64,000 nucleotides of DNA, from the NCBI GenBank assembly GCA_014360755.1, contig JACIWX010000004.1, positions 13,172-77,171 on the forward strand. Direction: 5' to 3'. The number at the start of each line of letters is the position of its first letter. Position 1 is the first letter of the stretch. This stretch comes from Chloroflexota bacterium (GTDB taxonomy: Bacteria; Chloroflexota; Anaerolineae; UBA2200). Positions 5,718-23,719 of this stretch are shown one piece after another. Under the pieces are notes generated by a model that saw only the letters and a program-made list of their open reading frames with translations, was not told the DNA's origin and made no database searches. The position numbers and the translations under genes were made by a program.

Positions 5718-8300
5718 CTACCCCTTGCGTGCCTTCTTCGTCGTTGCTTGAGGAGCAGCAGTGGTGTCTTGTACTTCTCCTTTCTTTGTCCGCCTGGTGC
5801 TTCCTTTCGCCTTGGTTGTGGACTGTTTCGCGGCAGGCCTGCGTGTCTGAAGAGCCCTCTTCTCCTCTCTGGAGGGTGCCTGGCGGGTAGCAGCAGACGC
5901 CTTGGATGTGGCTCGTATGCGCATGATGCTGATGACTTTATCCGTGCCTTTGAGGGGTACAATGATTGTGCCACGCGTGGAACGGCTTTGTTGGGGGATT
6001 TCGCTAGCTTTGGTTCGCAAGGTGGTTCCTCTGGCAGAGGAAATGCCAATCTCGTTATCCTTACGCACGACACAAGCTGCTGCCAGCAACCCGGTTTGCG
6101 CTAGGGCTTTGGACGAGAAGGTCTCAATGCCTTTGCCGTAACGGCTCTGGGCTGGATAGGCTGTCAGAGGCGTCTGTTTGGCATAGCCTTTTTCGCTCAC
6201 GACGAGCAGAGAAGCGCCTTCCTGCACGCCATCCATCCCGATAATGTAGTCATCAGTGGCTAGTTTGATGGCTTTCACGCCCGCGGCGTTGCGGCCCATT
6301 GCCCGTACTTCCTCTTCATGAAAACGTATCGCTTGCCCCCTTGCGGTAACTAAAATGAGCTCTTGGTTGCCGCCGGTGATCATGGCACAACGCAACTTAT
6401 CGCCTTCGTCCAATGCGATGGCAGTCAGGCCACTTGGACGGATAGCGGAGAACTCTTCTAGCGGGGTGCGTTTGATGCGGCCTTGGGCAGTGCACATGGT
6501 CAGGAAGGTGCCTGCTTGGAAGTCAGGCGTTTCTATCACTGCAGTTACCGTTTCGTCTGCTTCGGTGGTCAGCAAACTAGAGAGAGGGATGCCCGTTGCC
6601 GAATCAGGGATTTGATGCGCTTTGATGGTAAAGCAGCGGCCTTTGTCCGTGCAAAAGAGCACATTGTGCAGTGTGTTGGTCGCCACTATATGCTGTACGG
6701 CATCCCGGCTTGTCGCAGGAAACAGGTCGCTGCGCCGGGAAACCCTTTTCACATAGCCCCGTTGCGTCACGGCAACGAACACATCTTCCTCTGGAATCAG
6801 GTCTTCGACCCTGATTTCTTCGGCTTCCTTTTCCGAAATACGTGTGCGTCGGGCATCGCCATAGCGTTCTTTCAGTTCCTGCAGCTCTGCCTTGATGACC
6901 TGGAGGATTTTGCGCGGGCTAGCCAGCAGGCTCTGCAGGTATTGGATTTGCTTCAGTACATCCGCATATTCTTCCTCGATTTTGCGGCGTTCCAGTGCTG
7001 CCAAACGACGTAATTGCAAATCGAGGATGGCGCGTGCTTGTATCTCCGTCAGCTTGAACTTGCGCTGTAGATTATGCAAGGCGGTATCCGCATTTTGAGA
7101 TTGGCGGATGGTGGTGATGACTGCATCCAAGTTGTCCAGGGCAATTTTCAGCCCTTCGAGGATGTGGGCGCGCAACTTGGCGCGCTCCAGTTCAAAACGG
7201 CTGCGGCGGGTGATGACTTCCTGGCGATGTTCGATAAACAGTTGCAGGCACCGCTTCAACGATAGGACACGGGGTTCACCGTCCACCAACGCCAACAGGT
7301 TGACGTTGAACGTGCTCTGCATAGGCGTGTATTTGTACAATTGCATCAATGTGGGCTGTGGTTCCATCCCACGCTTCAGCTCAATGACGATACGCATGCC
7401 CTGGCGGTCGGATTCATCGCGCAAATCGGATATCGTCTCAATCCTTTTGTCGCGCACCAACTCGGCGATTCTCTCAATCAGGCTGGCTTTGCCCACTTGA
7501 TACGGGAGCTCGGTAACGATAATGACAGATTTGCCCCCGCCAGCGTCCTCAAAATGCGCCCTTGCCCGCACGACGATCTTCCCATTGCCAGTAGCATAGG
7601 CACTGCGGATGCCTTCCAGCCCCAGGATAGTGCCCCCGGTTGGGAAATCAGGGCCTTTGATAAACGTCATCAGTTCTTCCACAGAAATGGCATCTATACG
7701 CCGATAGTTGTCTATGAGGAAGATCAGGGCATCACACACTTCGTTCAAATTGTGCGGCGGTACATTGGTAGCCATGCCGACCGCGATGCCGGAGGCACCG
7801 TTCAGCAGGAAATTTGGCACGCGCGTGGGCAGCACCGTTGGCTCTTGCAATGTGCCATCAAAGTTGTCCATGAAATCCACGGTGTCTTTGTCTATGTCAG
7901 CCAGCAATTCCTCGGCAATGGGGGTCAGGCGCGCTTCGGTATAGCGCATCGCGGCGGGGTTGTCACCATCAATAGAGCCAAAGTTACCCTGGCCATCCAC
8001 CAGCAAATACCGCATTGTGAAATCCTGGGCCATACGCGTCATCGCATCGTAAACCGCGACATCGCCGTGGGGGTGGTACTTGCCCAGCACTTCACCGACG
8101 ATGCGGGCGCTTTTCTTGTAAGGTTTGTCGTGCTGCAAGCCCATGTCATTCATGGCGTAGAGGATACGGCGTTGTACGGGCTTTAATCCATCCCGGACAT
8201 CGGGCAGGGCGCGCGAAGTGATGACACTCATGGCGTAATCCAAATACGCTGTCTTCATTTCCTGCTCGATGTCAACCTGTCTGACGATGCCAATCTCCAT
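5718..8300 (-). CDS. gyrA: DNA gyrase subunit A with a Lys/Arg-rich C-terminal tail
   Basis: [34 protein letters not shown] and the active-site region AMRYTEARL. The ORF track start is 8330; the ATG at 8300 (MEIGIV) fits the TATAAT at 8335-8340 better. Confidence 0.97.
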
Positions 8301-10545: not shown

Positions 10546-12399
10546 ATGGTCATCCCGCTGAGGAGCAGACATCACCGAAATGATTGGCTTGTTGATGCAG
10601 TGCTGTGCATCTCCATAGCGGGCTTGGCTTGCTCACTATATGTGCACACGTTGGCACCGTCGGTGTTGATCAGCGATTTGGGTGAGTACCAGTTTGTTCT
10701 GTACGAACTGGGTATCCCCCATCCTACCGGTTATCCTCTATATGTCCTTTTGGGCTATCTGTGGAGCCGTTTGCCCATTGGTTCAGTAGCGTACCGTATC
10801 AACTTGCTTTCTGCTGTCTTGGGAGCGGTAACGCTTGTACTTGTGTACCTGGGGTTACGGGATTGGACAAGGTACCGAGGAGTTGCTCTTGGTTTGACCC
10901 TCTTTTTCGCTGTGACGCCCACCTTTTGGTCTCAGATGCTCGTTGCCGGTAGCTATCCACTGAACGCGCTGCTTTTTGCACTGCTCCTCTACTTAGTTTT
11001 GTGTTACCTGGAGGATAGAGTGCGTGTAGAGTGGCTGCTGTTCGTGTTTGGGCTGGGGCTGGCGCATCACCGCACGATGATCCTGGTTACTCCAGCGTTG
11101 TTATATCTAATCTGGCAACGTCGCCAAGAGCGCTGGGAGTGGAAACGCATGCTAAAGGGAGTAGGATATCTGCTCGCACCTTTGCTGCTATATGCCTACA
11201 TTCCCATTCGCGCCTTCCAGCTCGGTCGCGATGATCTGACAACTGTCCCGGCGTTAGTTTCCTTTCTTTCTGGCAGGGTGTTCTCTGGTTTATTATTTCA
11301 ACAAGGCTGGGCAGGGCTGCCTAGCCAAATCGCGAAGTGGGTTGGATGGACAGTGCAGGAGCTCACGCCAATAGGCGTCTTGCTTGCCTTAGTTGGTATT
11401 GGCGTAGCCTGGCGTCATTGCCGCCCTTTTAGTCAGTTTACTATATTGGCTTACCTGGGGCATCTGGCTTTCAACCTGAACTATTACATTGGCAACATTT
11501 ATATCTATTACATCCCGTCCTACATGATCCTGTTGTTTTGGGCAGGGAGTTCTCTCTATGGGGTGTGTCGCTGGTTGGAACAGGCGGCTGATAAACGCGG
11601 ATGGCTACAAGTTGGAATCAGCGGCATATTGCTGGCGAGTGCCCTCCTGCGAGCCGTTGCCATTTACCCGATGGTCGATATGAGCCACGAGTACACGATG
11701 GAGAACCTCTGGCTGGATGCTTTCGCACTCCCGTTGGCAAAGGGAGGGGCAGTGCTTGCCAACTGGAACAAGCATACCTCGTTGGTTTACTATCAGCGCG
11801 TGGAAAAGCGGCGACCTGATTTACAACCTTTCATCGCCACGGATGAAAACGTACACCGGGCTATGGCGGAGGGGCGCGCGCTGTATGCTGCTGATCTGCC
11901 TCCTACCTTGGACCCTTTTTCTCTTTCCTGTATGGGACCGCTGATCGAGATACGTCCCCGCCCTTACCATCTGGCTGATATTCCTATCGCTTTTCCCACT
12001 GATGTCGTATTCGGCGGGTTTCTTCGACTACACGGTTATGACTTTACTTACCTCCGCCGGGATGTAGAGGGAAATGAGCGTTACCTCGTTACTTTATACT
12101 GGTCCCTTGTTACACCTACAGAGCGCACACTGGCTGTTTCGGTGCGTCTGTATACAGGCAACAGCCTGCTCATCCAGGTGGATGGCTTGCCTGTGCGGGG
12201 GTATTATCCACTGGCACGTTGGCAGCCAGGAGAGGTAGTCATTGACCAGTATATACTGCGCTTATCACAAGCACAGCAACCGCTGGATAAGAAGGCGGAG
12301 TTAGAGGTAGTTGTCTATACCCCCGATGACATGCAACCGTTGGTCGTAGAAGGAACGGAAGAAAAAGCATACAGGCTGGGCATAGTTGTCTTGCCATAG
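10546..12399 (+). CDS. DUF2723 family membrane protein (TMEM260/PMT-like putative glycosyltransferase)
   Basis: N-terminal DLGEYQFVLYELGIPHPTGYPLY motif and many TM segments. The ORF track start at 10390 lies inside the MITE, so the ATG at 10546 is used. Confidence 0.8.
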   Translation: MVIPLRSRHHRNDWLVDAVLCISIAGLACSLYVHTLAPSVLISDLGEYQFVLYELGIPHPTGYPLYVLLGYLWSRLPIGSVAYRINLLSAVLGAVTLVLVYLGLRDWTRYRGVALGLTLFFAVTPTFWSQMLVAGSYPLNALLFALLLYLVLCYLEDRVRVEWLLFVFGLGLAHHRTMILVTPALLYLIWQRRQERWEWKRMLKGVGYLLAPLLLYAYIPIRAFQLGRDDLTTVPALVSFLSGRVFSGLLFQQGWAGLPSQIAKWVGWTVQELTPIGVLLALVGIGVAWRHCRPFSQFTILAYLGHLAFNLNYYIGNIYIYYIPSYMILLFWAGSSLYGVCRWLEQAADKRGWLQVGISGILLASALLRAVAIYPMVDMSHEYTMENLWLDAFALPLAKGGAVLANWNKHTSLVYYQRVEKRRPDLQPFIATDENVHRAMAEGRALYAADLPPTLDPFSLSCMGPLIEIRPRPYHLADIPIAFPTDVVFGGFLRLHGYDFTYLRRDVEGNERYLVTLYWSLVTPTERTLAVSVRLYTGNSLLIQVDGLPVRGYYPLARWQPGEVVIDQYILRLSQAQQPLDKKAELEVVVYTPDDMQPLVVEGTEEKAYRLGIVVLP

Positions 12400-13227: not shown

Positions 13228-15810
13228 TTATGAACGTTTTGCTTTCTCCTGCAGCTCATAGAGTTTGTTGATTGCCTCCAGCGGCGACATCGAAGAAATG
13301 TCCAACTCCTTCAGTTCGTCCAGCACAGGGTGGTTGGCAGGGAAGAGGGACAATTGTTGCACCTGCATCACGCGGCGAGGAGCGGTACCTGCGGGTGAAC
13401 GCTGCACTTCTTCTTCCAGTTTTTTCAGAATCTCTTCTGCTCGGCGTATCACTGGCTTGGGCAAGCCAGCCAATTGGGCAACGTGGATGCCGTAACTGCG
13501 GTCTGCACCCCCAGGCACAATTTTACGCAGAAAGACCACCCGATCCTCCTCCTCTGCCACTGCCACATTGTAGTTGCGCACGCGGGGCAGGAACCTCGCC
13601 AATTCGGTTAGTTCGTGATAATGGGTCGCGAAAAGGGTTTTTGCCTGAAGACGAGGATGGTTGTGGATGTATTCCACGACGGCCCAGGCGATGGAAATGC
13701 CATCGTAAGTGCTCGTGCCACGCCCGATTTCATCCAGGATCAGCAAACTACGTTTCGTAGCGTGGTTGAGGATGTTCGCCGTCTCCACCATTTCTACCAT
13801 AAAGGTGCTTTGCCCCGCACTGATTTCATCCTGTGCACCCACGCGGGTGAAAATACGATCCACTAGGCCAATTTCTGCGGACTCAGCGGGCACGAAGGAA
13901 CCAATCTGCGCCATCAGCACAATAAGCGCAACCTGGCGCAGATAGGTGCTCTTGCCCGACATGTTCGGCCCTGTGATCACCAGGATTGCTTCTTGTGGTG
14001 AAAGGTGCGTGTCATTGGGCACAAAAGGCTCTTCGTGCAGGGTCAATTCGACCACTGGGTGGCGTCCACCGATGATATGGATGGAGTCTCCTTCGGTCAG
14101 GGTTGGGCGTACGTAACGATTGCGTTGCGCCACTTCAGCGAATGCTGCATACACGTCTATCTCTGCAAGAGCACGGGCAGTGGCGAGCATGCGTTGGGCG
14201 GCAGCCCCCACCTGTTCGCAGACTTGCAGGTAAATCTGGCGTTCCAATTCCGCGCGGCGCTCCTCGGCGTTAAGGATAAGCGATTCGTGTTCTTTCAGCT
14301 CCGGGGTGATAAAGCGCTCCGCATTGACCAGCGTCTGCTTGCGAATGTAATCCTTGGGCACCGCATCTAAATTGGCTTTGGTCACTTCGATATAATAGCC
14401 AAAGACTTTGTTATATCCCACCTTCAAGGACTTGATACCCGTGCGTTCGCGCTCCTGACGTTCCAGATTGGCAACCCAGGCTTTGGCATTGCGCGCTGCA
14501 TTTAACACCGTATCCAGCTCAGCGGAAAAGCCGCGTGCGATGACGCCTCCTGCCGCTAGCGTTGCCGGAGGGTCAGGCACGATAGCCCGTGAAATCAGCG
14601 TAACTACTTCAGGGCATGGATCGAGGGATTCTGCCAAAGCGGCGATACAAGGGGATGTAGCCATTTCTCGCAGCAGGGGGATGATTTCGGACACGGTCTG
14701 TAGTGAATTGCGCAGCCCAATCAGATCGCGCGGTGTAACAATGCGTTGCACGACGCGGTTGGTCAGCCGTTCCATATCGGCGACGCGCTTGAGCAAAGTG
14801 CGCAAGGCGGTGCGCCGGGGGATGTCGTCGTAAAAGGCCTGCACACCGTCCAAGCGGCGCTCCAAAGCGGCTAGGTCGAGTAATGGCTGGCTGAGCCATT
14901 GCCGCAAAAGTCTGCTGCCCATCGCCGTCTGGGTATCGTCTAGCACGCCCAGCAGTGAGCCGCGCACCGTGCCACTGCGGATAGTGCTCACAAGTTCCAG
15001 GTTGCGGCGTGTGGTTGCGTCGAGAGTCATAAATGCCTGTGTAGAGTAAGTGGATAACTGCGTGAGTTGCTGCACAGCCTTTTTTTGCGTTTCTTGCAGG
15101 TATTGCACAATGGCACCGGCTGCGGATATGGCGAGAGGTAAACCTGCACAGCCATAGCCATCGAGCGAAGCAACTTCAAAATGTTCGAGCAAGGCGCGTT
15201 GTGCGTTCCCCACATCGAAATGCCAGTCCGCGTATTTCGTGAAGGTATATTTGTTGGTCCATTCCTCTGGCAGGCTTATCTTTTCACTGATTAGCACTTC
15301 GGCTGGCTGCAGCCGTTCTATCTCTTGCCATGCCTGCTGTAAGGGCTGCTTGCCATCGAACTGCGTGGTCTTGAACTCGCCTGTGGTGATGTCCGTATAA
15401 GCCAGGCCTACTCGCTCCGGATGGAAAGCAAGGGCTGTCAGATAGTTATGGCGTTTTTCTTCCAGCAGGGCAGGTTCGACTACTGTGCCTGGTGTGACCA
15501 CGCGCACTACTTCGCGTCCCATCAAGCCCTTTGTCTCTTCCTGTTCCACCTGCTCGACGATGGCGACTTTGTGTCCAGCGGAAATCAACTTGGCTAGGTA
15601 GCTCTCAACTGCATGGTAGGGAACGCCAGCCAGGGGCACGCGTTCCCCCTTCCCAACCGGACGTGAAGTGAGCACGATGTCGCACACTTCTGAGACCAGC
15701 TTGGCATCGTCGTCAAAAGTCTCGTAAAAGTCGCCCAGGCGAAAGAGGACAATCGCATCCGGGAAGCGCTTCTTGATACGCAGATACTGTCTGCGCACAA
15801 GCGTAGTCAT
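13228..15810 (-). CDS. mutS: DNA mismatch repair protein MutS
   Basis: N-terminal RLGDFYETFDDDA, Walker A GPNMSGKST, and STFMVEM...DEIGRGTSTYDG. Confidence 0.97.
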   Translation of the reverse strand: MTTLVRRQYLRIKKRFPDAIVLFRLGDFYETFDDDAKLVSEVCDIVLTSRPVGKGERVPLAGVPYHAVESYLAKLISAGHKVAIVEQVEQEETKGLMGREVVRVVTPGTVVEPALLEEKRHNYLTALAFHPERVGLAYTDITTGEFKTTQFDGKQPLQQAWQEIERLQPAEVLISEKISLPEEWTNKYTFTKYADWHFDVGNAQRALLEHFEVASLDGYGCAGLPLAISAAGAIVQYLQETQKKAVQQLTQLSTYSTQAFMTLDATTRRNLELVSTIRSGTVRGSLLGVLDDTQTAMGSRLLRQWLSQPLLDLAALERRLDGVQAFYDDIPRRTALRTLLKRVADMERLTNRVVQRIVTPRDLIGLRNSLQTVSEIIPLLREMATSPCIAALAESLDPCPEVVTLISRAIVPDPPATLAAGGVIARGFSAELDTVLNAARNAKAWVANLERQERERTGIKSLKVGYNKVFGYYIEVTKANLDAVPKDYIRKQTLVNAERFITPELKEHESLILNAEERRAELERQIYLQVCEQVGAAAQRMLATARALAEIDVYAAFAEVAQRNRYVRPTLTEGDSIHIIGGRHPVVELTLHEEPFVPNDTHLSPQEAILVITGPNMSGKSTYLRQVALIVLMAQIGSFVPAESAEIGLVDRIFTRVGAQDEISAGQSTFMVEMVETANILNHATKRSLLILDEIGRGTSTYDGISIAWAVVEYIHNHPRLQAKTLFATHYHELTELARFLPRVRNYNVAVAEEEDRVVFLRKIVPGGADRSYGIHVAQLAGLPKPVIRRAEEILKKLEEEVQRSPAGTAPRRVMQVQQLSLFPANHPVLDELKELDISSMSPLEAINKLYELQEKAKRS

Positions 15811-16139
15811 GTCCCTCTCCAGTTAACTTCTGGCTGATTGGATAAGCCAAGTATAACGTACAAGTACGGTGCTGTCAAAGCAAAAATGCCCCAGGCGCAG
15901 GATAAAATTCTGCATCGGGATTTGACAAGAAAATAAATCAGATTAAGATATATGTTGACTCGTGCGGAACGCTTGTTCAATGGGGAACAGCGACAATACA
16001 TTGTAGATTCCCCTCACACAGTGCCGCTGATTCCCGCTCCATTGAAAGGAGGTGGTGAGTCGGCAAGTAAGCCATACCAGGCAATGCTTTACCTCGGTGA
16101 GAGGTAGAAGATTTTGGTATGCTATAGGAGGGGAGAAAA

Positions 16140-17855
16140 ATGAATACGATCTTTGTCTTAATCATTGCCGCCATTGCTTTGTTTTTGGGTTATGGGGTGT
16201 ACGCGCGCCGGATTGATCGCGATGTGATCCAACCCGACCCCAAGAGAGCCTGCCCGGCGAAATTGTACATGGACGGAGTGGATTTTATCCCCGCCAGCCG
16301 CAACGTCCTCTTTGGCTACCAATTCAAATCCATCGCTGCTCTTGGCCCCATCCTCGGTCCTATTGCAGCGGTGCAATGGGGCTGGCTGCCGGCGCTGTTG
16401 TGGATTATCTTTGGCACTTCCTTCATCGGCTGGGTGCAGGATTATGCCAGCATGATGATGGGCGTGCGTCGCGATGGAGATACTTTAGGAGCATTGAGCT
16501 ATAAGCTCATTTCCCCCCGTGCGCGCAACATTCTGATGCTTTTCCTGTATTTCTACCTGCTGCTGATCATGGGTGCATTTGGCAACACGGTTGGGAAAGG
16601 CTTGATGATTAACCCCAAAGTTCCCTTGGGCATGATCATTGTGACGCTGGCAGGCATCCTGGCTGGTCAGATGCTTTATAAGATGAAGCAGGATATTGTT
16701 CTTACCTCTATCGTTGCAGTTGCGATTTCTTTCCTGGGCATTGGGATCAGCACACTGCCGGCCGTGTCCAATATCTTCTCTGGCCTTTATGGCCTACCCA
16801 AATCACCGGTCGTGTTCCTCACTGTGACCAGGGCACAGTTCATTGGCACCTTGCTCGTTTTCGTTTTCTGCTACCTGGGTTCCGTGCTGCCTATCTGGTC
16901 ATGGGCACAGCCAGTGAACTATGTCTCCTTCTGGATCATCGCCTTGGGGATGCTGGGGGGTGTGCTGGGCATGCTCATCTGGCGGCCAGGTATGGGTGAG
17001 TTCCCTGCGTTCACCCAGTGGAGCATTCCTACCGGGCCGTTGTGGCCCATGCTGTTTGTCACTATCGCCTGCGGTGCCATCTCTGGTTGGCACAGCCTGG
17101 TGTCCACCTCTGGTACAGCGCGCCAGTTGGAGTGTGAGACAGATGCTCTGCCTGTAGGGGGCGGCGCCATGTTCATGGAGATGGTCCTGGCTACGATTGC
17201 CTTTTTGACTGCCACGGTCGCTTTCGGTAGCCTGGCCGCTTACAAGGAGACGCTAGGGAAGGTGGCCGCGTTGGGAGTATTCGCGGAGGGTTTGGCACGC
17301 TTCCTGGATCATATTGGCGTACCCCATGACTTTGGCGTAGCCTACGGCTCTGTCTTCCTGACCATCATGGGCTTGACCATCATGCAATTGGCGGTGCGTT
17401 TCATGCGCGTGGCCAGCGCTGAGTTGCTTGGGGACAAAGTGCCTGTTTTTAAGAATGTGCATGTGGGCACCATCGTGGCTCTGATTTTGACGGCTATCTT
17501 TGTCTGGATTGTGCCTTGGCTGACCATTTGGACCGCCTTTGGTGCTGCCAACCAACTGATGGCTGGCTTGGCTTTGCTGCTGATTTCGCTATGGTTAAAG
17601 GAGGAAGGGAAGAGGAACACCTGGGCACTCTATCCTTCCATCTTCATGCTTGTTACAACCGTAGCAGCGCTCATCTTGCTGGCTTACAACCAATTCAAGG
17701 GGATCGCAGTGGCCAAGACTTCTCAGGCAGCGATTGCTGCGGCGCTGGTGGCAATCATCGCGGTAGTTTTGATTGTGGCGGCGGCATTTCTCATTGCAGA
17801 TGGCTGGAAGGCGCTACAGAAGCGGCGCCCGGAGATGGCTAAGAAAACGCCATAA
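16140..17855 (+). CDS. cstA: Carbon starvation protein CstA family transporter
   Basis: 571 aa and polytopic; the FGYQFKSIAALGPILGPIAAVQWGWLPALLWI pattern is typical of CstA. Confidence 0.88.
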   Translation: MNTIFVLIIAAIALFLGYGVYARRIDRDVIQPDPKRACPAKLYMDGVDFIPASRNVLFGYQFKSIAALGPILGPIAAVQWGWLPALLWIIFGTSFIGWVQDYASMMMGVRRDGDTLGALSYKLISPRARNILMLFLYFYLLLIMGAFGNTVGKGLMINPKVPLGMIIVTLAGILAGQMLYKMKQDIVLTSIVAVAISFLGIGISTLPAVSNIFSGLYGLPKSPVVFLTVTRAQFIGTLLVFVFCYLGSVLPIWSWAQPVNYVSFWIIALGMLGGVLGMLIWRPGMGEFPAFTQWSIPTGPLWPMLFVTIACGAISGWHSLVSTSGTARQLECETDALPVGGGAMFMEMVLATIAFLTATVAFGSLAAYKETLGKVAALGVFAEGLARFLDHIGVPHDFGVAYGSVFLTIMGLTIMQLAVRFMRVASAELLGDKVPVFKNVHVGTIVALILTAIFVWIVPWLTIWTAFGAANQLMAGLALLLISLWLKEEGKRNTWALYPSIFMLVTTVAALILLAYNQFKGIAVAKTSQAAIAAALVAIIAVVLIVAAAFLIADGWKALQKRRPEMAKKTP

Positions 17856-17926
17856 TCAAATCCTGTCTTGTACGGCAGGGGCCTGCCGAAGCCTCCTGCT
17901 GTACAAGGCCCGACTGGTACAGACCA

Positions 17927-17957
17927 GAAACCAGGTTTCTAGCAGAAACCTGGTTTC
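17927..17957. promoter_or_regulatory. Nested palindrome GAAACCAGGTTTC-tagca-GAAACCTGGTTTC (candidate operator or hairpin)
   Basis: Two 13-bp units, each self-complementary and complementary to each other, 27 nt upstream of the GTG at 17984. Confidence 0.4.
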
Positions 17958-17983
17958 AAGTCATAAAAGAAGGATCGACATCG

Positions 17984-18277
17984 GTGCTGGATAGAGTGCA
18001 TAAGAAGCTCCGCAGAGCCATGCGCATGCTCAGCGAAATCCTTTACGGCATGACCGTTTTTGATTGGGTGCGCGGCTTGCGGCGCCAACGAGGGGAGATT
18101 GAGCAGCTTTTCATGCTCATCACCTTTGGTGACCTGATCGGAATTCCTGTCCTGCCTCCTTACTATGCCTTGCGCTTGTTGCCCTATGTGGTACCACACA
18201 TCAACCGCTGGAAGCATAGTTTGCTGCGGGAGCGAGATTGGACAGACTTGGCAGAACTGATTGAGGGAGTAGATTGA
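17984..18277 (+). CDS. Small conserved hypothetical protein, paralog A (97 aa)
   Basis: Shares the core LYGM...LF.LIT.GDL.G.P.LPPYY.LR.LPYVVP....WK...LRERD.TD with the next ORF. GTG start with GAAGGA upstream. Confidence 0.65.
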   Translation: MLDRVHKKLRRAMRMLSEILYGMTVFDWVRGLRRQRGEIEQLFMLITFGDLIGIPVLPPYYALRLLPYVVPHINRWKHSLLRERDWTDLAELIEGVD

Positions 18278-18332
18278 TTTTTCAAACTCGGTTTGATAAA
18301 ATCAAGGCAAATTTTTTAGAAAGGAGCCAAAG

Positions 18333-18614
18333 ATGACTGAGGAAGAAAAACAGGAGAGTGCACTTTCGCGTTTTGGCCGTTCGTTCAAAGAATTGCTCTA
18401 TGGCATGGCTGGTCATGACATGACCCGCTATGCGCTCAAGACGCGGGGCAGTATGGAGCACCTATTCATCCTGATCACCATGGGAGACTTGCTTGGCGTA
18501 CCCATTCTGCCGCCCTATTATTCATTGCGCATCCTGCCATACGTTGTGCCGCAAATCAGTACTTGGAAGCGGCGCATGTTGCGTGAGCGCGACCTGACAG
18601 ACGCGTTGGCTTAG
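18333..18614 (+). CDS. Small conserved hypothetical protein, paralog B (93 aa)
   Basis: Roughly 55-60 percent identical by eye to paralog A over about 73 residues. Strong GAAAGGAG Shine-Dalgarno. Confidence 0.7.
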   Translation: MTEEEKQESALSRFGRSFKELLYGMAGHDMTRYALKTRGSMEHLFILITMGDLLGVPILPPYYSLRILPYVVPQISTWKRRMLRERDLTDALA

Positions 18615-18628
18615 AAAGGAGCACACAC

Positions 18629-19612
18629 TTGACACTGCTTGCGCAAAGCTTCCGTGCCAATCCCAACCGCCGCTACATCGAATTCGGTGGCAAGGGTGGA
18701 TTGGGCAAGACAACCTTTTCTGCTGCTACCGCCTACTGGCTAGCCCAGCAGGGGTATAAAGTGCTGGTCTTTTCTGTAGACCCGCAAGCCTCGCTTTCGG
18801 ATATCTTTGAGCGCGATATTTTTGGCAAAGGGCCGATCGAGATCATTCCCAATCTCTTCGCACAAGAGATTGACGCTGACCGACGTATCAAGGATTACCA
18901 AGACGAGATCCGTCGCAAAATTCTCGATATGTATGGCATGGACACTGTGCCTGAGGAGATCGAGCACTATATCCAGGCTGCTGCTGCCGAGCCTGCTATG
19001 GAGGAAAGTGCCATTTTTGATGCAGTGGTGGATATTGTCGTCGGTGGTGACTATGACTATTACATCTACGACCTGGTGCCACTTGGCCATGCGCTGTACT
19101 ATTTGAGCATGGCTAGCATCTACAATGAATGGATTGAGAAGATCACCAAGTTGCGTGAAGAAATGCAGGAATATGCGCAGGTAGCAGCAATTCTGGAACG
19201 CAAGAAACAGACCGAAGAAGATCAGATATTGGCTGAGTTGCAATACATTCGGCAACGTATCAGCACTTCCTCCAGTATCCTCACTGATCGGGAAAGGACT
19301 GCCTTTTTCTTCGTGGTCACGCCGGAGGACATGATTATTCGCGACACCGTGAAAGCGGCTGCGCTGTTTGCCAAATATCAAGTGCCGATCTGTGGCTATA
19401 TTGTGAACCGCGTCATCCCACCAGAGTTGGCGCAACAGAATATCCCCGAGTATTTGCGCAACCGCATTGCTATGCAAGAGCGCTACCTAAAACAAATAGA
19501 GGAAACCTTTGGCAAAGATGTGCTGGCATGCGTGCCTGAATTTGAACGGGACATCACGGGGATGGAAATGATTGCCAAGGTAGCACATGCCCTGTATGGA
19601 GGTGAGGCATGA
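18629..19612 (+). CDS. ArsA/Get3-family P-loop ATPase, copy 1
   Basis: Deviant Walker A GGKGGLGKTT and DPQASLSD. The switch II region reads YDLVPLGHALYYL instead of DTAPTGHTLRLL. TTG start. Confidence 0.85.
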   Translation: MTLLAQSFRANPNRRYIEFGGKGGLGKTTFSAATAYWLAQQGYKVLVFSVDPQASLSDIFERDIFGKGPIEIIPNLFAQEIDADRRIKDYQDEIRRKILDMYGMDTVPEEIEHYIQAAAAEPAMEESAIFDAVVDIVVGGDYDYYIYDLVPLGHALYYLSMASIYNEWIEKITKLREEMQEYAQVAAILERKKQTEEDQILAELQYIRQRISTSSSILTDRERTAFFFVVTPEDMIIRDTVKAAALFAKYQVPICGYIVNRVIPPELAQQNIPEYLRNRIAMQERYLKQIEETFGKDVLACVPEFERDITGMEMIAKVAHALYGGEA

Positions 19613-20586
19613 TCACGACAAATACCTGCCAGTTTTTGGCTGAGCATCCGCAGATGAAGTACCTCTTTTTTGGTGGAAAGGGCGGCGTTGGCAAGACAGT
19701 GATGGCTGGAGCGGCAGCCCTATGGATGGCTCGCCAAGGGAAGCGAACTTTATTGGCTTCGACAAACCCCGTGCACTCCCTTAGCAGTTTGCTGGATCAG
19801 GATGTTTTTGGGAAGCCCACCCCGGTGAAAGGGGTGCCTAATCTCTGGGCATACGAGATCGATACCAAAGACACCATCGCCAAGTCGAAAGTGGAACTTA
19901 CACAGAAAATTGAGTGGTTTCTGCGTTATGCAGACATCAAAACCAAAGCGGATGAGTTTGTTGAGTCAGCCACAATGAACCCCGCCTTTGAAGAGTCGGC
20001 AATGTTTGAGAATATGATTGACCTCATGTTTGAGGACAAGTACGAAGCCTATGTTTTCGATACCGCCCCAACAGCCAATGCCAGGCGTCTTCTGGGCATG
20101 TCCAGCGTCTATTCGATGTGGGTAAATAAGATGTTACAGAGCCGTGAAGAGGCCAGGTCGCTGAAGGAGCTCCTCTCCTATAGCAAGAAAAAAGAGGAGA
20201 AGGACCCGCTGATGGAGTATCTAGTCAATCTCCGTTTGCGTATGGAGCGGGCCAAAAAGCTGCTTACAGATGACCAAAAAACGGCTTTCTTCTTTATCAC
20301 CTTGCCTGAAGCACTGCCTATTGCCGTCATCAAGCGTTTCATTAACTGGTTCAAAGATTTTGGCATCCCTGTGGGCGGCGTCATTGTCAACATGTTGATT
20401 GATAAAGAGTCTGTGGGGCCCGATGCACCAGAATTCGTGCGCAACCGCGTCCTGATGCAGGAGCGCTACATGGAGGAAATCTGGCGCAGTTTCCCGAACG
20501 TCTGCGCGCTGGTGCCTCTCTTCGAGACAGAGGTGCGGGGCGTGCCGATGCTAGAGCGCGTGGCAGAACGAGTTTTTGCTCGCTGA
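19609..20586 (+). CDS. ArsA/Get3-family P-loop ATPase, copy 2
   Basis: GGKGGVGKTV and NPVHSLSS. The switch II region reads FDTAPTANARRLL. The ATG overlaps the stop of copy 1 (ATGA). Confidence 0.85.
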   Translation: MITTNTCQFLAEHPQMKYLFFGGKGGVGKTVMAGAAALWMARQGKRTLLASTNPVHSLSSLLDQDVFGKPTPVKGVPNLWAYEIDTKDTIAKSKVELTQKIEWFLRYADIKTKADEFVESATMNPAFEESAMFENMIDLMFEDKYEAYVFDTAPTANARRLLGMSSVYSMWVNKMLQSREEARSLKELLSYSKKKEEKDPLMEYLVNLRLRMERAKKLLTDDQKTAFFFITLPEALPIAVIKRFINWFKDFGIPVGGVIVNMLIDKESVGPDAPEFVRNRVLMQERYMEEIWRSFPNVCALVPLFETEVRGVPMLERVAERVFAR

Positions 20587-20670
20587 GCATTTGGCCTCTG
20601 TCTTTCTCCCAGCAAATGTGCCACTTTCTGGATAAAGGTATTGCTTTTCTGCGGACTCAATGGGGTGTAG

Positions 20671-21267
20671 GTGCAGATGAATCCGTATGTGCTGCTTGTA
20701 TTGGTGGCATTGTTGTTCATTTTAGGCTTTGGCGGCCTGTCATGGCTACGAGGCGAGGGGTTGCCTGGCCGCTTTGCCTGGGAAGTGCTTGCCTTTACCG
20801 GTGTTACGCTTTTGGTAGCCTGGGTAATGCAAGTGCCTATTTCCCCTGTTTTGTTCCTGGTTTTGGTGTACCTCTTTACTATGCGGGCGCGGTTGTTGAT
20901 CGACGTGGGCAACCTCTTGTCGACACGGGGGTCCTATGCGCAGGCGTTGTCCCTTTTCCATCTAGCCTTGCGCCTGGACAGTGATGCTTTTAGCCAAGCC
21001 ATTGGACGTATCAATATCGGTGTTGTTTTGATACGGCAAAAGCGCTTTGAGGAAGCTATCGCGCTGCTGAGTGACGTGTTAGCCCATATACCTCGTGGTG
21101 GGCCAAAATATGAAGCAGCTTGTCGCTATAACCTGGGCATGGCTTATCTTCGCACCGGTCAGGAGGTGAAGGCTGTAGAACAGTTCAATGAAGTCATCCA
21201 GCTATTACCGCACTCCATCTACGCACGAAGCGCAGAGGCGATGCTCCAGAGGCGGGGCAGGAAATAA
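20671..21267 (+). CDS. Membrane-anchored tetratricopeptide-repeat protein
   Basis: Three N-terminal hydrophobic helices followed by TPR-like repeats (AQALSLFHLALRLD, EEAIALLSDVL, YNLGMAYLRTGQEVKAVEQFNEVIQL). Confidence 0.6.
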   Translation: MQMNPYVLLVLVALLFILGFGGLSWLRGEGLPGRFAWEVLAFTGVTLLVAWVMQVPISPVLFLVLVYLFTMRARLLIDVGNLLSTRGSYAQALSLFHLALRLDSDAFSQAIGRINIGVVLIRQKRFEEAIALLSDVLAHIPRGGPKYEAACRYNLGMAYLRTGQEVKAVEQFNEVIQLLPHSIYARSAEAMLQRRGRK

Positions 21268-21323
21268 GGAAACGCAGAACAAGATTATTGTGCCAGGCAG
21301 AAACGAGCTCGTATATTCTAGTC

Positions 21324-21725
21324 TTATACTGTCACTGGTTGCGGTACTTGCGGAAGGAGGACAAGTAGCAGTGGCAAGAATGCGAACAGCAGGAGCACAG
21401 ACGGCAGAACTTGTCGTAAGGGTTTGATCCCCCTTGTTCTAATATCTCTCAACAGCAGCATGACAGATGCAAGCCAGGAAAAGCACAGCGAAACAGACAG
21501 CGGTTTTCTACGTACGTCCCCAGGGTCTAGCAGGATCAGGATTGAGAGCAAGGCTAATGTCACAGTAGCAGCTACTTGCAAGAGCTCACCAGCATCAAGC
21601 AGACGCTCGTGTACCTTGACAGGGGACTGGTCAATATCCTGTCTAGTCCTCAGCTTCTGTTTAGGGCTGGCTCCTGTCGCAAGATCTTGACACGAGGCAA
21701 TAGAGTTTCCTGGTTTTCCCTTCAC
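21324..21725 (-). CDS. Hypothetical small membrane protein (weak call)
   Basis: GTG start with AAGGTGA upstream and three hydrophobic stretches. No recognisable family; it lies in a 650-bp otherwise non-coding gap. Confidence 0.3.
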   Translation of the reverse strand: MKGKPGNSIASCQDLATGASPKQKLRTRQDIDQSPVKVHERLLDAGELLQVAATVTLALLSILILLDPGDVRRKPLSVSLCFSWLASVMLLLRDIRTRGIKPLRQVLPSVLLLFAFLPLLLVLLPQVPQPVTV

Positions 21726-21840
21726 CTAGATCACCTTCTGCTGAGTAGTTCTGCTTATTATAATTATAGCTCCGAATTGCAATCCGTGCAAATTCACGGC
21801 CTGACCCACAAGTAGTAGTGGTATACCCTGATTAGGCTAC

Positions 21841-21869
21841 TAGACATTGCGTGTATTTGTAAGTAAAAT
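21841..21869 (+). promoter_or_regulatory. Candidate promoter for the beta-hydroxyacid dehydrogenase gene
   Basis: TAGACA, 17 nt, TAAAAT, about 55 nt upstream of the ATG at 21926. Confidence 0.35.
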
Positions 21870-21925
21870 TCATCGCAACTGGGGCCGCTAGAGCGTCTCC
21901 GACCAAAGATCAGGCGGAGGAGAGG

Positions 21926-22831
21926 ATGGAACGGAAAGTCATTGGCTTCATCGGTTTGGGGATTATGGGTGCACCCATGGCAACCAATTTGCTGCGCGGT
22001 GGGCATCCATTGGTTGTCTATAACCGCACGCCAGCGAAAATGCAGCCTCTGCTGGCGCTGGGCGCAGAGGCAGGCCAATCCTGCCAGGATGTAGCAGCAC
22101 GCAGTGAAGTGGTCATCTCCATGGTTTCCGATTCGCCAGATGTAGAGCAGGTTTACCTTGGTGCGGAAGGCGTGCTGGCGGGAGCGAAGCCTGGCACCTT
22201 GCTGATTGATATGTCCACCATCTCGCCGGTGACAGCGGTCAAGGTGGCTAAGGCAGCAAGTGAAAAGGGCTGCCCTATGCTCGACGCACCCGTTTCCGGT
22301 GGGGATGTAGGAGCGAGGAATGCCACGCTTGCCATTATGGTTGGCGGTGACCGAGAAGTTTTTGAGCGCGCCAAGCCTATTTTCGAACTGATGGGCAAGC
22401 CCGTCTACTGCGGGCCCTCCGGTGCGGGGCAGATTGTCAAAGCATGCAATCAGATCGCCACCGCGCTGCACATGATCGCCATGGCCGAGGCTCTTGTCCT
22501 GGGTGCCAAGGCAGGCGTTGACCCAGCCATTGTGCTGAAAGTACTCAGTGGCGGATTTGCGCAATCCCGTGTGATGGACGTGCGTGGCCCACGGGTCATC
22601 CAAGGCGACTTCCAGCCTGGATTTCGCAGTCGTTTGCACTATAAGGATCTGAATATTGTCCTGGAAACAGCACGGGCATACCAATGTAGTTTGCCGGCAT
22701 CGGCTTTAGCCCATGAGTTATTCGGCGCCATGCAAGCACAGGGCTGGGGCGAGCTCGACCATTCAGCCATTATTCAAGTGATCGAATCGCTTTCAAACGT
22801 GAAGGTGAGGAGCAGGAGAAATAACGAGTGA
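21926..22831 (+). CDS. NAD(P)-dependent beta-hydroxyacid dehydrogenase (GarR / 3-hydroxyisobutyrate dehydrogenase family)
   Basis: IGFIGLGIMGAPMATNL Rossmann motif, DAPVSGG and GAGQIVKACNQ. Confidence 0.88.
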   Translation: MERKVIGFIGLGIMGAPMATNLLRGGHPLVVYNRTPAKMQPLLALGAEAGQSCQDVAARSEVVISMVSDSPDVEQVYLGAEGVLAGAKPGTLLIDMSTISPVTAVKVAKAASEKGCPMLDAPVSGGDVGARNATLAIMVGGDREVFERAKPIFELMGKPVYCGPSGAGQIVKACNQIATALHMIAMAEALVLGAKAGVDPAIVLKVLSGGFAQSRVMDVRGPRVIQGDFQPGFRSRLHYKDLNIVLETARAYQCSLPASALAHELFGAMQAQGWGELDHSAIIQVIESLSNVKVRSRRNNE

Positions 22832-22980: not shown

Positions 22981-23370
22981 TTATAGTTTGATCTCCTTGG
23001 AACTTTCCCACAGCCCATGGATGTTGCAGAAGGACAGCGCAATGAGTGTGCCGGGGTTGTTCACCTTCATGGAGAATTGTGCCTCGTGGTTGGTATACAC
23101 TGGCCCCTGATTGGCGCCTTTCACCGATTCTCCGTGGGCGCTGAATTCAAAGTGCCCTACCTGGTAAATGAATTTGTCCCCTTCTGGTTGAAAGTAGACG
23201 TCAATCCAGCGGATGTGATGCTCCGTGGTATTCGGGTGCGCGATCTCCTTACCAACACTGACCTTGACGGTGAACATCTTGTCTGCTTCAACTCGATCAG
23301 GACATTCAATCACCGGCACATGTTTTTCTGCTTTCCAATCGGCGGACTGGATCCTCTCACCTAGTTTCAT
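22981..23370 (-). CDS. Superoxide reductase (1Fe neelaredoxin-type, desulfoferrodoxin family)
   Basis: KHVPVIE, HPNTTEHHIRWI and CNIHGLWES are iron-ligand motifs. No N-terminal desulforedoxin domain. Confidence 0.88.
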   Translation of the reverse strand: MKLGERIQSADWKAEKHVPVIECPDRVEADKMFTVKVSVGKEIAHPNTTEHHIRWIDVYFQPEGDKFIYQVGHFEFSAHGESVKGANQGPVYTNHEAQFSMKVNNPGTLIALSFCNIHGLWESSKEIKL

Positions 23371-23385
23371 CGCTGATCTCCTCCC

Positions 23386-23547
23386 TCAGTTAATGGGCTC
23401 AAATTCGTCTTTCCCCGCCCCACATTCTGGACAGACCCAGTCATCGGGCAGGTCTTCAAATGCTGTTCCCGGTGGAACGCCGTTATCGGGGTCGCCTTTT
23501 GCCGGGTCATAGATGTATCCGCATACCTGACATTCCCACTTTTTCAT
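23386..23547 (-). CDS. Rubredoxin
   Basis: CQVCGYIY ... CPECGAG are the two CxxCG knuckles. GAGGAGG Shine-Dalgarno before the MKKWEC start; the ORF track start at 23580 is rejected. Confidence 0.93.
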
Positions 23548-23719
23548 AGACGCCTCCTCGCGCAGGATATTTGCTGGCAATTATGCTCCAATTTGTCCAA
23601 ATTGTCAAAATAGCAAGAAGTTCACTTTCTGGGCAAATATTGCAGAGAACAAGTTCCCTGGCTGAATAGCGGCAAGTTGGCCGAGATGAGCCAGGAATTT
23701 TCAATCCCTGGTGAGCCGG

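Follow-up and report, generated by a model that had tools for sequence, protein, structure and literature searches.

Gene clusters in which a CstA-family permease is encoded together with ArsA-class ATPases have been known in silico since 2010. Using SEED, Castillo and Saier (2010, Int J Microbiol, PMC2963123) collected 26 operons of bacteria and archaea in which cstA is joined by single-domain ArsA homologues of about 330 aa. In 24 of the 26 there was also a protein of about 90 aa with one transmembrane segment (TMS), named CstX, and some archaeal operons encoded a 1-TMS protein of about 210 aa, named CstY. Adjacent pairs of ATPase genes were reported for Pyrobaculum arsenaticum and Symbiobacterium thermophilum, and duplicated CstX for P. 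arsenaticum and Thermococcus kodakarensis. The trees of CstA, CstX and the ATPase indicated co-evolution, the switch I Asp was noted to be replaceable by Asn alone, and the ATPase was proposed to energise CstA with CstX as the coupler (PMC2963123). Here we describe what looks like a new member of this cluster type in a 64,000-nucleotide stretch (hereafter the window) from a Chloroflexota bacterium of the class Anaerolineae (GenBank assembly GCA_014360755.1, contig JACIWX010000004.1, positions 13,172 to 77,171). It comprises the genes of a CstA-family permease, two paralogous small proteins of the DUF7990 family (S1 and S2), two tandem ArsA/Get3-class ATPases (A1 and A2) and a transmembrane (TM) protein with a TPR domain (TM-TPR). 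We judge it marginally probable that the products form a complex centred on CstA, in which an A1/A2 heterodimer tethered by the DUF7990 proteins would couple ATP to uptake, either driving or gating it, with the TM-TPR protein as an optional scaffold.

The window cluster shares with the cstA-cstX-arsA operons the CstA gene, small proteins of about 90 aa, single-domain ATPases (327 and 325 aa) and the lack of ars genes. The 2010 study was comparative only and covered 26 genomes of that year, none of them from Anaerolineae. The complementary split of switches I and II between the two ATPases, the hairpin fold of the small proteins, the TM-TPR partner and the size of the Chloroflexota clade are not part of it. 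Our literature search found no later use of the term CstX.

In Escherichia coli, CstA and BtsT take up pyruvate and possibly peptides. The K-12 chromosome (NC_000913, 4587909-4591279; locus L089) carries btsT, yjiX and yjiA co-directionally with gaps of 49 and 10 nt, and the order of transporter, small protein and SIMIBI-class P-loop NTPase is the same as in the window cluster. The components differ, however. YbdD and YjiX are soluble-looking DUF466 proteins of about 65 aa with a Cys-Cys end, whereas the DUF7990 proteins have a hydrophobic hairpin tip and no such terminus; YjiA is a COG0523 GTPase, whereas A1 and A2 are ArsA/Get3-class ATPases. YbdD is genetically required together with CstA for constitutive pyruvate uptake (PMC5847655).

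Among the relatives of the ATPases, ArsA is one chain of about 590 aa with two similar halves, both bearing DTAPTGH and metalloid-binding Cys/His residues, and its partner is ArsB or Acr3. The likeness to ArsAB would lie in a dimeric or pseudodimeric ArsA-class ATPase placed on a carrier able to work alone, giving an ATP-driven system. In the window, by contrast, two separate asymmetric chains without conserved Cys would have CstA as their partner, with DUF7990 proteins in addition; we know of no small coupler for ArsAB. By analogy, transport would here likely be uptake rather than the efflux of ArsAB. With Get3/TRC40 the chains A1 and A2 share the deviant Walker A motif, the A-loop region and, judging from sequence, the fold. 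However, Get3 forms a homodimer with both switches canonical, a zinc hinge of the CXXC type and a hydrophobic groove for clients, whereas A1 and A2 lack the CXXC, have half-degenerate switches in each chain and are set in a transporter operon. The pair BagA/BagB (Rv3679/Rv3680) is similar in its two adjacent single-domain ArsA-like genes, whose products are thought to be heterodimeric, but A1 and A2 are not orthologous to it and the genomic partners differ; to our knowledge neither CstA nor DUF7990 occurs beside BagA/BagB.

Gene content and conservation of the cluster

The DUF7990 alignment was scanned against GTDB species-representative genomes, which gave at least 593 tblastn-confirmed matches. 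We kept 80 loci, each from a distinct species genome and nearly all from Chloroflexota, most of them Anaerolineae, and mapped the six window proteins (CstA, S1, S2, A1, A2 and TM-TPR) onto them for synteny counts. Of the 62 loci with enough upstream sequence, 61 have cstA upstream in the same orientation, and S2-A1-A2 follow downstream in 59 of 61, so that the linkage of the small proteins to paired ArsA-like genes, predicted in an initial annotation of the window, is borne out. Gene order is also kept in the divergent lineages L084, L086 and L090-L092 with different flanking genes: MutS and a dehydrogenase in the window, Lon in L086, SDR and DnaE in L084. Because the flanking genes vary between lineages, the conserved unit runs from cstA through A2, with or without the TPR gene. 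We are highly confident that the module belongs with CstA.

The initial annotation had delimited the cluster as 17984-21267. All of its genes are there, but these limits are too narrow, as the conserved unit begins at cstA (16140). With CstA as the most constant partner (61 of 62), the suggested role shifts from that of a free-standing Get3-like ATPase with its client or receptor to that of a transporter accessory module.

The head gene of the cluster, cstA (16140..17855, + strand, as are all six genes), encodes 571 aa with a PF02554 match at E 5e-110. Its product has 30% identity to E. coli CstA across the N-terminal 373 residues and an additional C-terminal match. After 128 nt on the same strand follow S1 (17984..18277, 97 aa, GTG start) and S2 (18333..18614, 93 aa), then A1 (18629..19612, 327 aa, TTG start), A2 (19609..20586, 325 aa) and the TM-TPR gene (20671..21267, 198 aa). 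Median identity of the orthologues to the window proteins is 84% for S2, 79% for A2, 77% for A1, 62% for CstA, 59% for S1 and 44% for TM-TPR. Thus, S2 is the most conserved member of the cluster and the TM-TPR protein the least conserved. The high conservation of S2 would fit a small protein that touches several partners.

The TM-TPR protein has TPR_1/2/12 matches (E 1e-13 to 1e-15) in its C-terminal domain. Its N-terminal residues, about 80, are strongly hydrophobic (KD19 up to 2.5), and about three TM segments can be read there by eye, in agreement with the three-TM TPR protein described earlier. The gene was present in 55 of 76 loci, after A2 in 41 of them and divergently upstream of cstA in 14. 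It is a frequent companion of the cluster but not a universal one.

The spacer between cstA and S1 (17856..17983, +) contains two strong stem-loops without a T tract. Its RNA fold reaches -60.7 kcal/mol (z = -7.6 against shuffled sequences), and one stem-loop is made by a perfect 13-nt inverted repeat, GAAACCAGGTTTC / GAAACCTGGTTTC. An Rfam scan of 15700-22000 gave no match. The stem-loops are possibly an element of mRNA processing or stability, which could set the ratio of permease expression to that of the downstream genes.

The neighbours of the cluster in the window are MutS, a ZIP transporter, the dehydrogenase, superoxide reductase, rubredoxin and PdxA. The genes of the desulfoferrodoxin-type superoxide reductase and of rubredoxin lie side by side (22981-23580, - strand), a pair consistent with an anaerobic or microaerophilic Chloroflexota host. 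In four loci (L015, L024, L025 and L069) the metagenome-assembled genomes are labelled Desulfuromonadales, Spirochaetes/Spirochaetales or Hyphomicrobiales. They have the same cluster, with a Chloroflexota-like S1 identity of 58-65%, and the labels probably reflect mis-binning or possibly horizontal transfer.

The ATPase pair and the DUF7990 proteins

A1 and A2 have 35% identity to each other (E 4e-65). Both match PF02374 (ArsA_ATPase; A1 E 1e-72, A2 E 3e-65) and exceed the cut-off of TIGR00345 for GET3/ArsA/TRC40 (232 and 212 bits, cut-off 135). The two genes overlap by ATGA at the A1 stop codon (19609-19612; ...gaggcATGAtcacg), just as the initial annotation had it. The P-loop reads GGKGGLGKTT in A1 (G20-T29) and GGKGGVGKTV in A2 (G22-V31), so the signature lysine, which in the ArsA/Get3 class acts across the dimer interface, is present in both chains. 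The switches, in contrast, are divided between them. In switch I, A1 has SVD51PQAS and retains the catalytic Asp, while A2 has STN53PVHS, and its Asn replaces the Asp; N53 aligns with the Asp of "stDpahs" in the archaeal Get3 structure 3UG6. In switch II, A1 has DLVPLGH (D148-H154) within YDLVPLGHALYYL (residues 147-159) and A2 has DTAPTAN (D151-N157) within FDTAPTANARRLL (residues 150-162). Consequently, the switch I Asp and the GH of switch II are left in A1, and the His of DPAHS together with the switch II DTAPT in A2; by these alignments each chain retains half of each switch. The degenerate switch II motifs had been quoted correctly before, but as read from the motifs the asymmetry is wider and includes switch I.

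The motifs of both chains are at least 95% conserved in alignments of 69 A1 and 64 A2 orthologues. The asymmetry is kept in L084, in L086 and in L092, where identity to the window proteins falls to 46% (A1) and 44% (A2), and because the pattern persists at this distance the split between A1 and A2 is old. In Get3 the switch I Asp (D57 of the yeast protein) primes the attacking water (PMC10248533). The simplest reading of the motifs would be a heterodimer with one hydrolytic site in A1 and one non-hydrolytic nucleotide site in A2. A heterodimer, as proposed in the initial annotation, indeed appears the most reasonable interpretation of the one-to-one co-occurrence of the two genes, their translational coupling and their conserved complementary motif losses. 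In L084 two small genes lie between A1 and A2 (10693-11164; one with a HicA_toxin match, the other encoding 90 aa without a Pfam match), and the pair tolerates separation of its two genes.

S1 and S2 are paralogues, as supposed, with 53% identity across 86 residues (BLASTP E 4e-34), slightly below the earlier estimate of 55-60%, and two ORFs of about 95 aa had been correctly recognised at their positions. The family is Pfam PF25952 (DUF7990), a label precomputed for P0001, whose sequence equals that of S1, and for all of its listed homologues; the label is also found on the second, S2-type small gene of L084 and L086. Homologue clusters number 883 and 4919 at E<=1e-3 (about 4900 at 90% identity) and 438 at 50% identity. 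All source names are "hypothetical protein", and a literature search found no paper on DUF7990, on "cory-CC-star" or on carbon starvation protein, Get3 and operon in combination, which agrees with the initial impression of an uncharacterised family. Because the small ORFs have thousands of homologues and the degenerate ATPase motifs are conserved at 95% or more, these features are not due to chance.

AlphaFold2 predicts for S1 a helix at residues 2-52, a loop G53-IPVL-P58 and a helix at 59-95 (predicted local distance difference test, pLDDT, 72). The tandem protein P0271 is predicted to form the hairpin in both of its domains, with pLDDT of about 85 for the well-sampled half, and a Foldseek search of the Protein Data Bank (PDB) with this prediction found nothing resembling the hairpin. 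The invariant residues of S1 include G49, D50, G53, P55, L57-P58-P59-Y60-Y61 and R64, and the conserved core FGDxxGxPxLPPYYxLRLLPYVVP lies at and around the turn. The hydropathy of the core is borderline for a TM segment (KD19 1.6); the core holds several Pro as well as an Asp and an Arg that never vary, and Arg/Lys flank the hydrophobic tip on both arms. In structural terms, the prediction suggests that the hairpin is monotopic or re-entrant, or else that its tip plugs into a partner, and that both termini are cytoplasmic.

Matches to NF041419 ("cory-CC-star") stay below its 80-bit cut-off (36.7 and 32.0 bits; E 3e-9 and 9e-8), and these E-values suggest remote homology. S1 ends in ...EGVD and S2 in ...DALA, so neither the Cys-Cys terminus of cory-CC-star nor the Cys-Cys (or Cys-Sec) terminus of YbdD/YjiX is present. 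A tblastn search of plasmids with S2 found nothing. Extension of the family to archaea, with the divergent P0221 as query, returned only 39 matches, of which the named ones were Chloroflexota. Some DUF7990 proteins (P0122, P0141 and P0146) have N-terminal extensions of about 90-130 aa that look thioredoxin/glutaredoxin-like by eye and have no Pfam match; the extension could be an upstream gene that was merged in, or a true fusion.

Locus variants and apparent fusions

L090-L092 have cstA, a single DUF7990 gene and the A1/A2 pair, followed by a gene for a 162-aa protein without a Pfam domain; in L091 the DUF7990 gene shares 4 nt with cstA. Since these loci carry one DUF7990 gene, the arrangement of two small proteins with two ATPases is a feature of a lineage and not a rule, and the earlier idea of an ATPase heterodimer coupled to a small-protein heterodimer does not hold in general. 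Two other loci have a third DUF7990 gene directly after A2 (L070, 5989-6252; L073, 5738-5998). In L001 a 207-aa V4R-domain protein (PF02830, E 1e-14) is encoded at 6303-6926(+) between the two DUF7990 genes, and S1-S2 gaps of similar size, about 460-680 nt, occur in L002, L003, L047 and L055.

In many of the loci L001-L080 the cluster is flanked by the gene of a conserved protein of about 210 aa that has a single TM helix near its N-terminus and lacks Pfam domains. The gene is often divergent from cstA or adjoins it; further examples are L083 8323-8952(-) and L084 8258-8914(-). The protein fits CstY in size and topology. In the window, a search for a CstY-like gene gave no match below E = 1.

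Several apparent fusions were rejected. P0275, with tandem DUF7990, and a 690-aa double ArsA protein both come from L083, where the junctions are out of frame and rich in Arg, Pro and Ala, and the C-terminus is garbage. This 460-kb contig contains several split or fused genes with out-of-frame tails, typical of indel errors, and clusters derived from it, such as P0275, are for this reason not taken as natural fusions. P0272, P0277 and P0121 are singletons whose junctions resemble frameshift, deletion or chimera, and P0271 is a singleton with a junction resembling stop-codon read-through. The geometry of a heterodimer could not be taken from the P0271 single chain either: the predicted TM-score (pTM) was 0.32, the inter-domain packing was unreliable, and the single-domain sequences all aligned to the second half. 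For the CstA-DUF7990 "fusion" P0197 there is no encoding gene on record; it probably arises at a 4-nt overlap of cstA and the small gene such as that in L091.

The proposed CstA complex and its significance

In the complex that we favour, the products of cstA, S1, S2, A1, A2 and the TM-TPR gene would act as one membrane assembly, in which transport would fall to the CstA-family permease, as the analogy with CstA and BtsT of E. coli suggests. The two ATPases would pair into an asymmetric P-loop heterodimer with the hydrolytic switch I Asp on A1. Since A2 has Asn at this position, and the equivalent D57N change blocks hydrolysis in Get3, A2 would offer a nucleotide-binding site that is non-catalytic or regulatory. 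The hydrophobic Pro/Tyr-rich tip of the DUF7990 proteins may dip into the membrane or into CstA, while their charged helical stalks would remain cytoplasmic and serve as the docking site of the ATPase. Because tips placed in this way would reach the membrane or CstA and the stalks the ATPase, the DUF7990 proteins would be couplers and would correspond to what Castillo and Saier called CstX. As ATP is bound and hydrolysed, uptake of the substrate would then be driven or gated, the template being ArsA, which makes a pump of the carrier ArsB, and the TM-TPR protein could be an optional scaffold. The more specific version, in which a hydrolytic A1 and an Asn-substituted, nucleotide-sensing A2 are bolted by DUF7990 to a CstA-family secondary carrier and make it an ATP-driven or ATP-gated importer, we put forward only tentatively.

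Several points weigh against this model. E. coli CstA and BtsT are proton symporters that work without an ATPase, so ATP coupling is not obligatory for the CstA family. Of the proteins with solved structures, the archaeal Get3 proteins are nearest to A1 and A2, and in vitro these bind tail-anchored proteins. Two loci, L017 and L057, carry a DUF7990 gene without nearby ATPases; the orphan gene of L057 (5968-6252) has a CstY-like gene and one for a WD40 protein as neighbours, and neither cstA nor an ATPase gene lies within 6 kb. The apparent S-S and A-A fusions, which were potential support for dimers, are frameshift artefacts, and we infer the heterodimer itself, every physical contact, the substrate and how coupling is directed. 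DUF7990 is probably CstX, as judged by size, hydrophobic segment and position, with CstX compared by its description only. The DUF7990 proteins could likewise have been taken for divergent YbdD/YjiX (DUF466, PF04328), but the likeness, YGM...D and RER.D, is by eye only; hmmscan gave no PF04328 match to S1 or S2 even at E<=10 (YbdD itself 1.6e-30), the hhalign probability was 0.4%, and this candidate was rejected.

The relatedness to Get3 raises another interpretation, near to that of the initial annotation: a bacterial GET-like system in which A1/A2 would be a Get3-type chaperone that picks up the hydrophobic hairpin tips of S1 and S2, or segments of CstA, in the cytosol and delivers them to the membrane, with TM-TPR as receptor or Sgt2-like co-chaperone. 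The cluster would then serve transporter biogenesis, not energisation. The above-cut-off TIGR00345 matches of both ATPases agree with this, as do their best solved relatives, the archaeal Get3 structures 3UG6 and 3ZQ6 (E ~1e-58 and ~1e-52; for A1, 3e-58 and 2e-57), the single borderline hydrophobic segment of S1 and S2, and a TPR gene that often adjoins the cluster. However, the Get3 CXXC ("CDFC" in 3UG6) is matched in the alignments by PEYL of A1 and PEFV of A2, no cysteine is conserved in either orthologue set, and what aligns with the hydrophobic Get3 motif/TRC40 insert of 3UG6 is in both chains a shorter, polar region. The CXXC is missing from some bona fide Get3 proteins too (PMC10248533). 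The helical subdomains are almost invariant in sequence, which points to a single fixed partner and not to a range of clients. S1 and S2, moreover, are not tail-anchored, as their hydrophobic stretch is central, at the hairpin turn, with the invariant Asp and Arg and several Pro; and a dedicated chaperone encoded stoichiometrically with one permease would be unusual. The cluster is thus probably not part of a GET pathway, and we regard the chaperone interpretation as unlikely.

Could the ATPases instead be a stress-protection pair like BagA/BagB, only co-located or co-regulated with cstA and acting under carbon starvation on a different target, with the DUF7990 proteins as their own membrane anchors? 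The parallel with Rv3679/Rv3680 had been drawn in the initial annotation, and it stands only as an analogy: the BagA/BagB heterodimer is established, tandem single-domain ArsA-like genes with asymmetric motifs resemble that arrangement, and cstA belongs to the starvation genes of E. coli, so that co-regulation alone could yield some linkage. Orthology, on the other hand, fails: the NCBIfam equivalogs NF053622 and NF053621 for BagA and BagB have cut-offs of 400 and 521 bits, and the best scores are 50.3 and 39.6. The cluster's linkage to cstA holds almost without exception over deep divergence, with short or overlapping intergenic distances, and exceeds what co-regulation usually gives; the trees of Castillo and Saier also indicate that CstA, CstX and the ATPase co-evolve. 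We consider this explanation quite improbable. The last candidate is a true pump ATPase for arsenite, antimonite or another oxyanion, split into two genes. It can appeal to the Pfam domain name "anion-transporting ATPase" and to partial TIGR04291 matches, but these reach 97 and 103 bits where the ArsA equivalog cut-off is 650. A conserved cysteine for a metalloid site is lacking, DTAPTGH is incomplete in both chains, and no arsB, acr3, arsR, arsC or arsD occurs in the cluster or its flanks (about 9.6-26 kb of the window); ars and cst genes are never found in one operon (PMC2963123). A pump of this kind is very hard to credit, and its sequence features effectively refute it.

The proposal that an ATPase energises CstA dates from 2010, and because of this the value of the present analysis lies in making the idea testable and not in discovery. 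What is added here is the extent and age of the complementary degeneracy of A1 and A2, the predicted DUF7990 hairpin, the TM-TPR companion, the size of the Chloroflexota clade and the variant with one small protein and two ATPases. CstA-family transporters are widespread systems of starvation and pyruvate uptake, whose small partners are required genetically in E. coli. A module present across a large Chloroflexota clade (at least 593 matches) offers a clean system in which to ask: Do ArsA-class ATPases energise carriers other than those of arsenite? The Asp of A1 and the Asn of A2 are ready-made for mutational tests. If the model is true, the cluster would bring a novel architecture to primary active transport, beyond the ABC, P-type and ArsAB classes, and would give DUF7990/CstX its first function, with implications for the roles of YbdD and YjiX in enterobacteria. 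It also bears on how the Get3/ArsA fold has been recruited to different tasks at the membrane.

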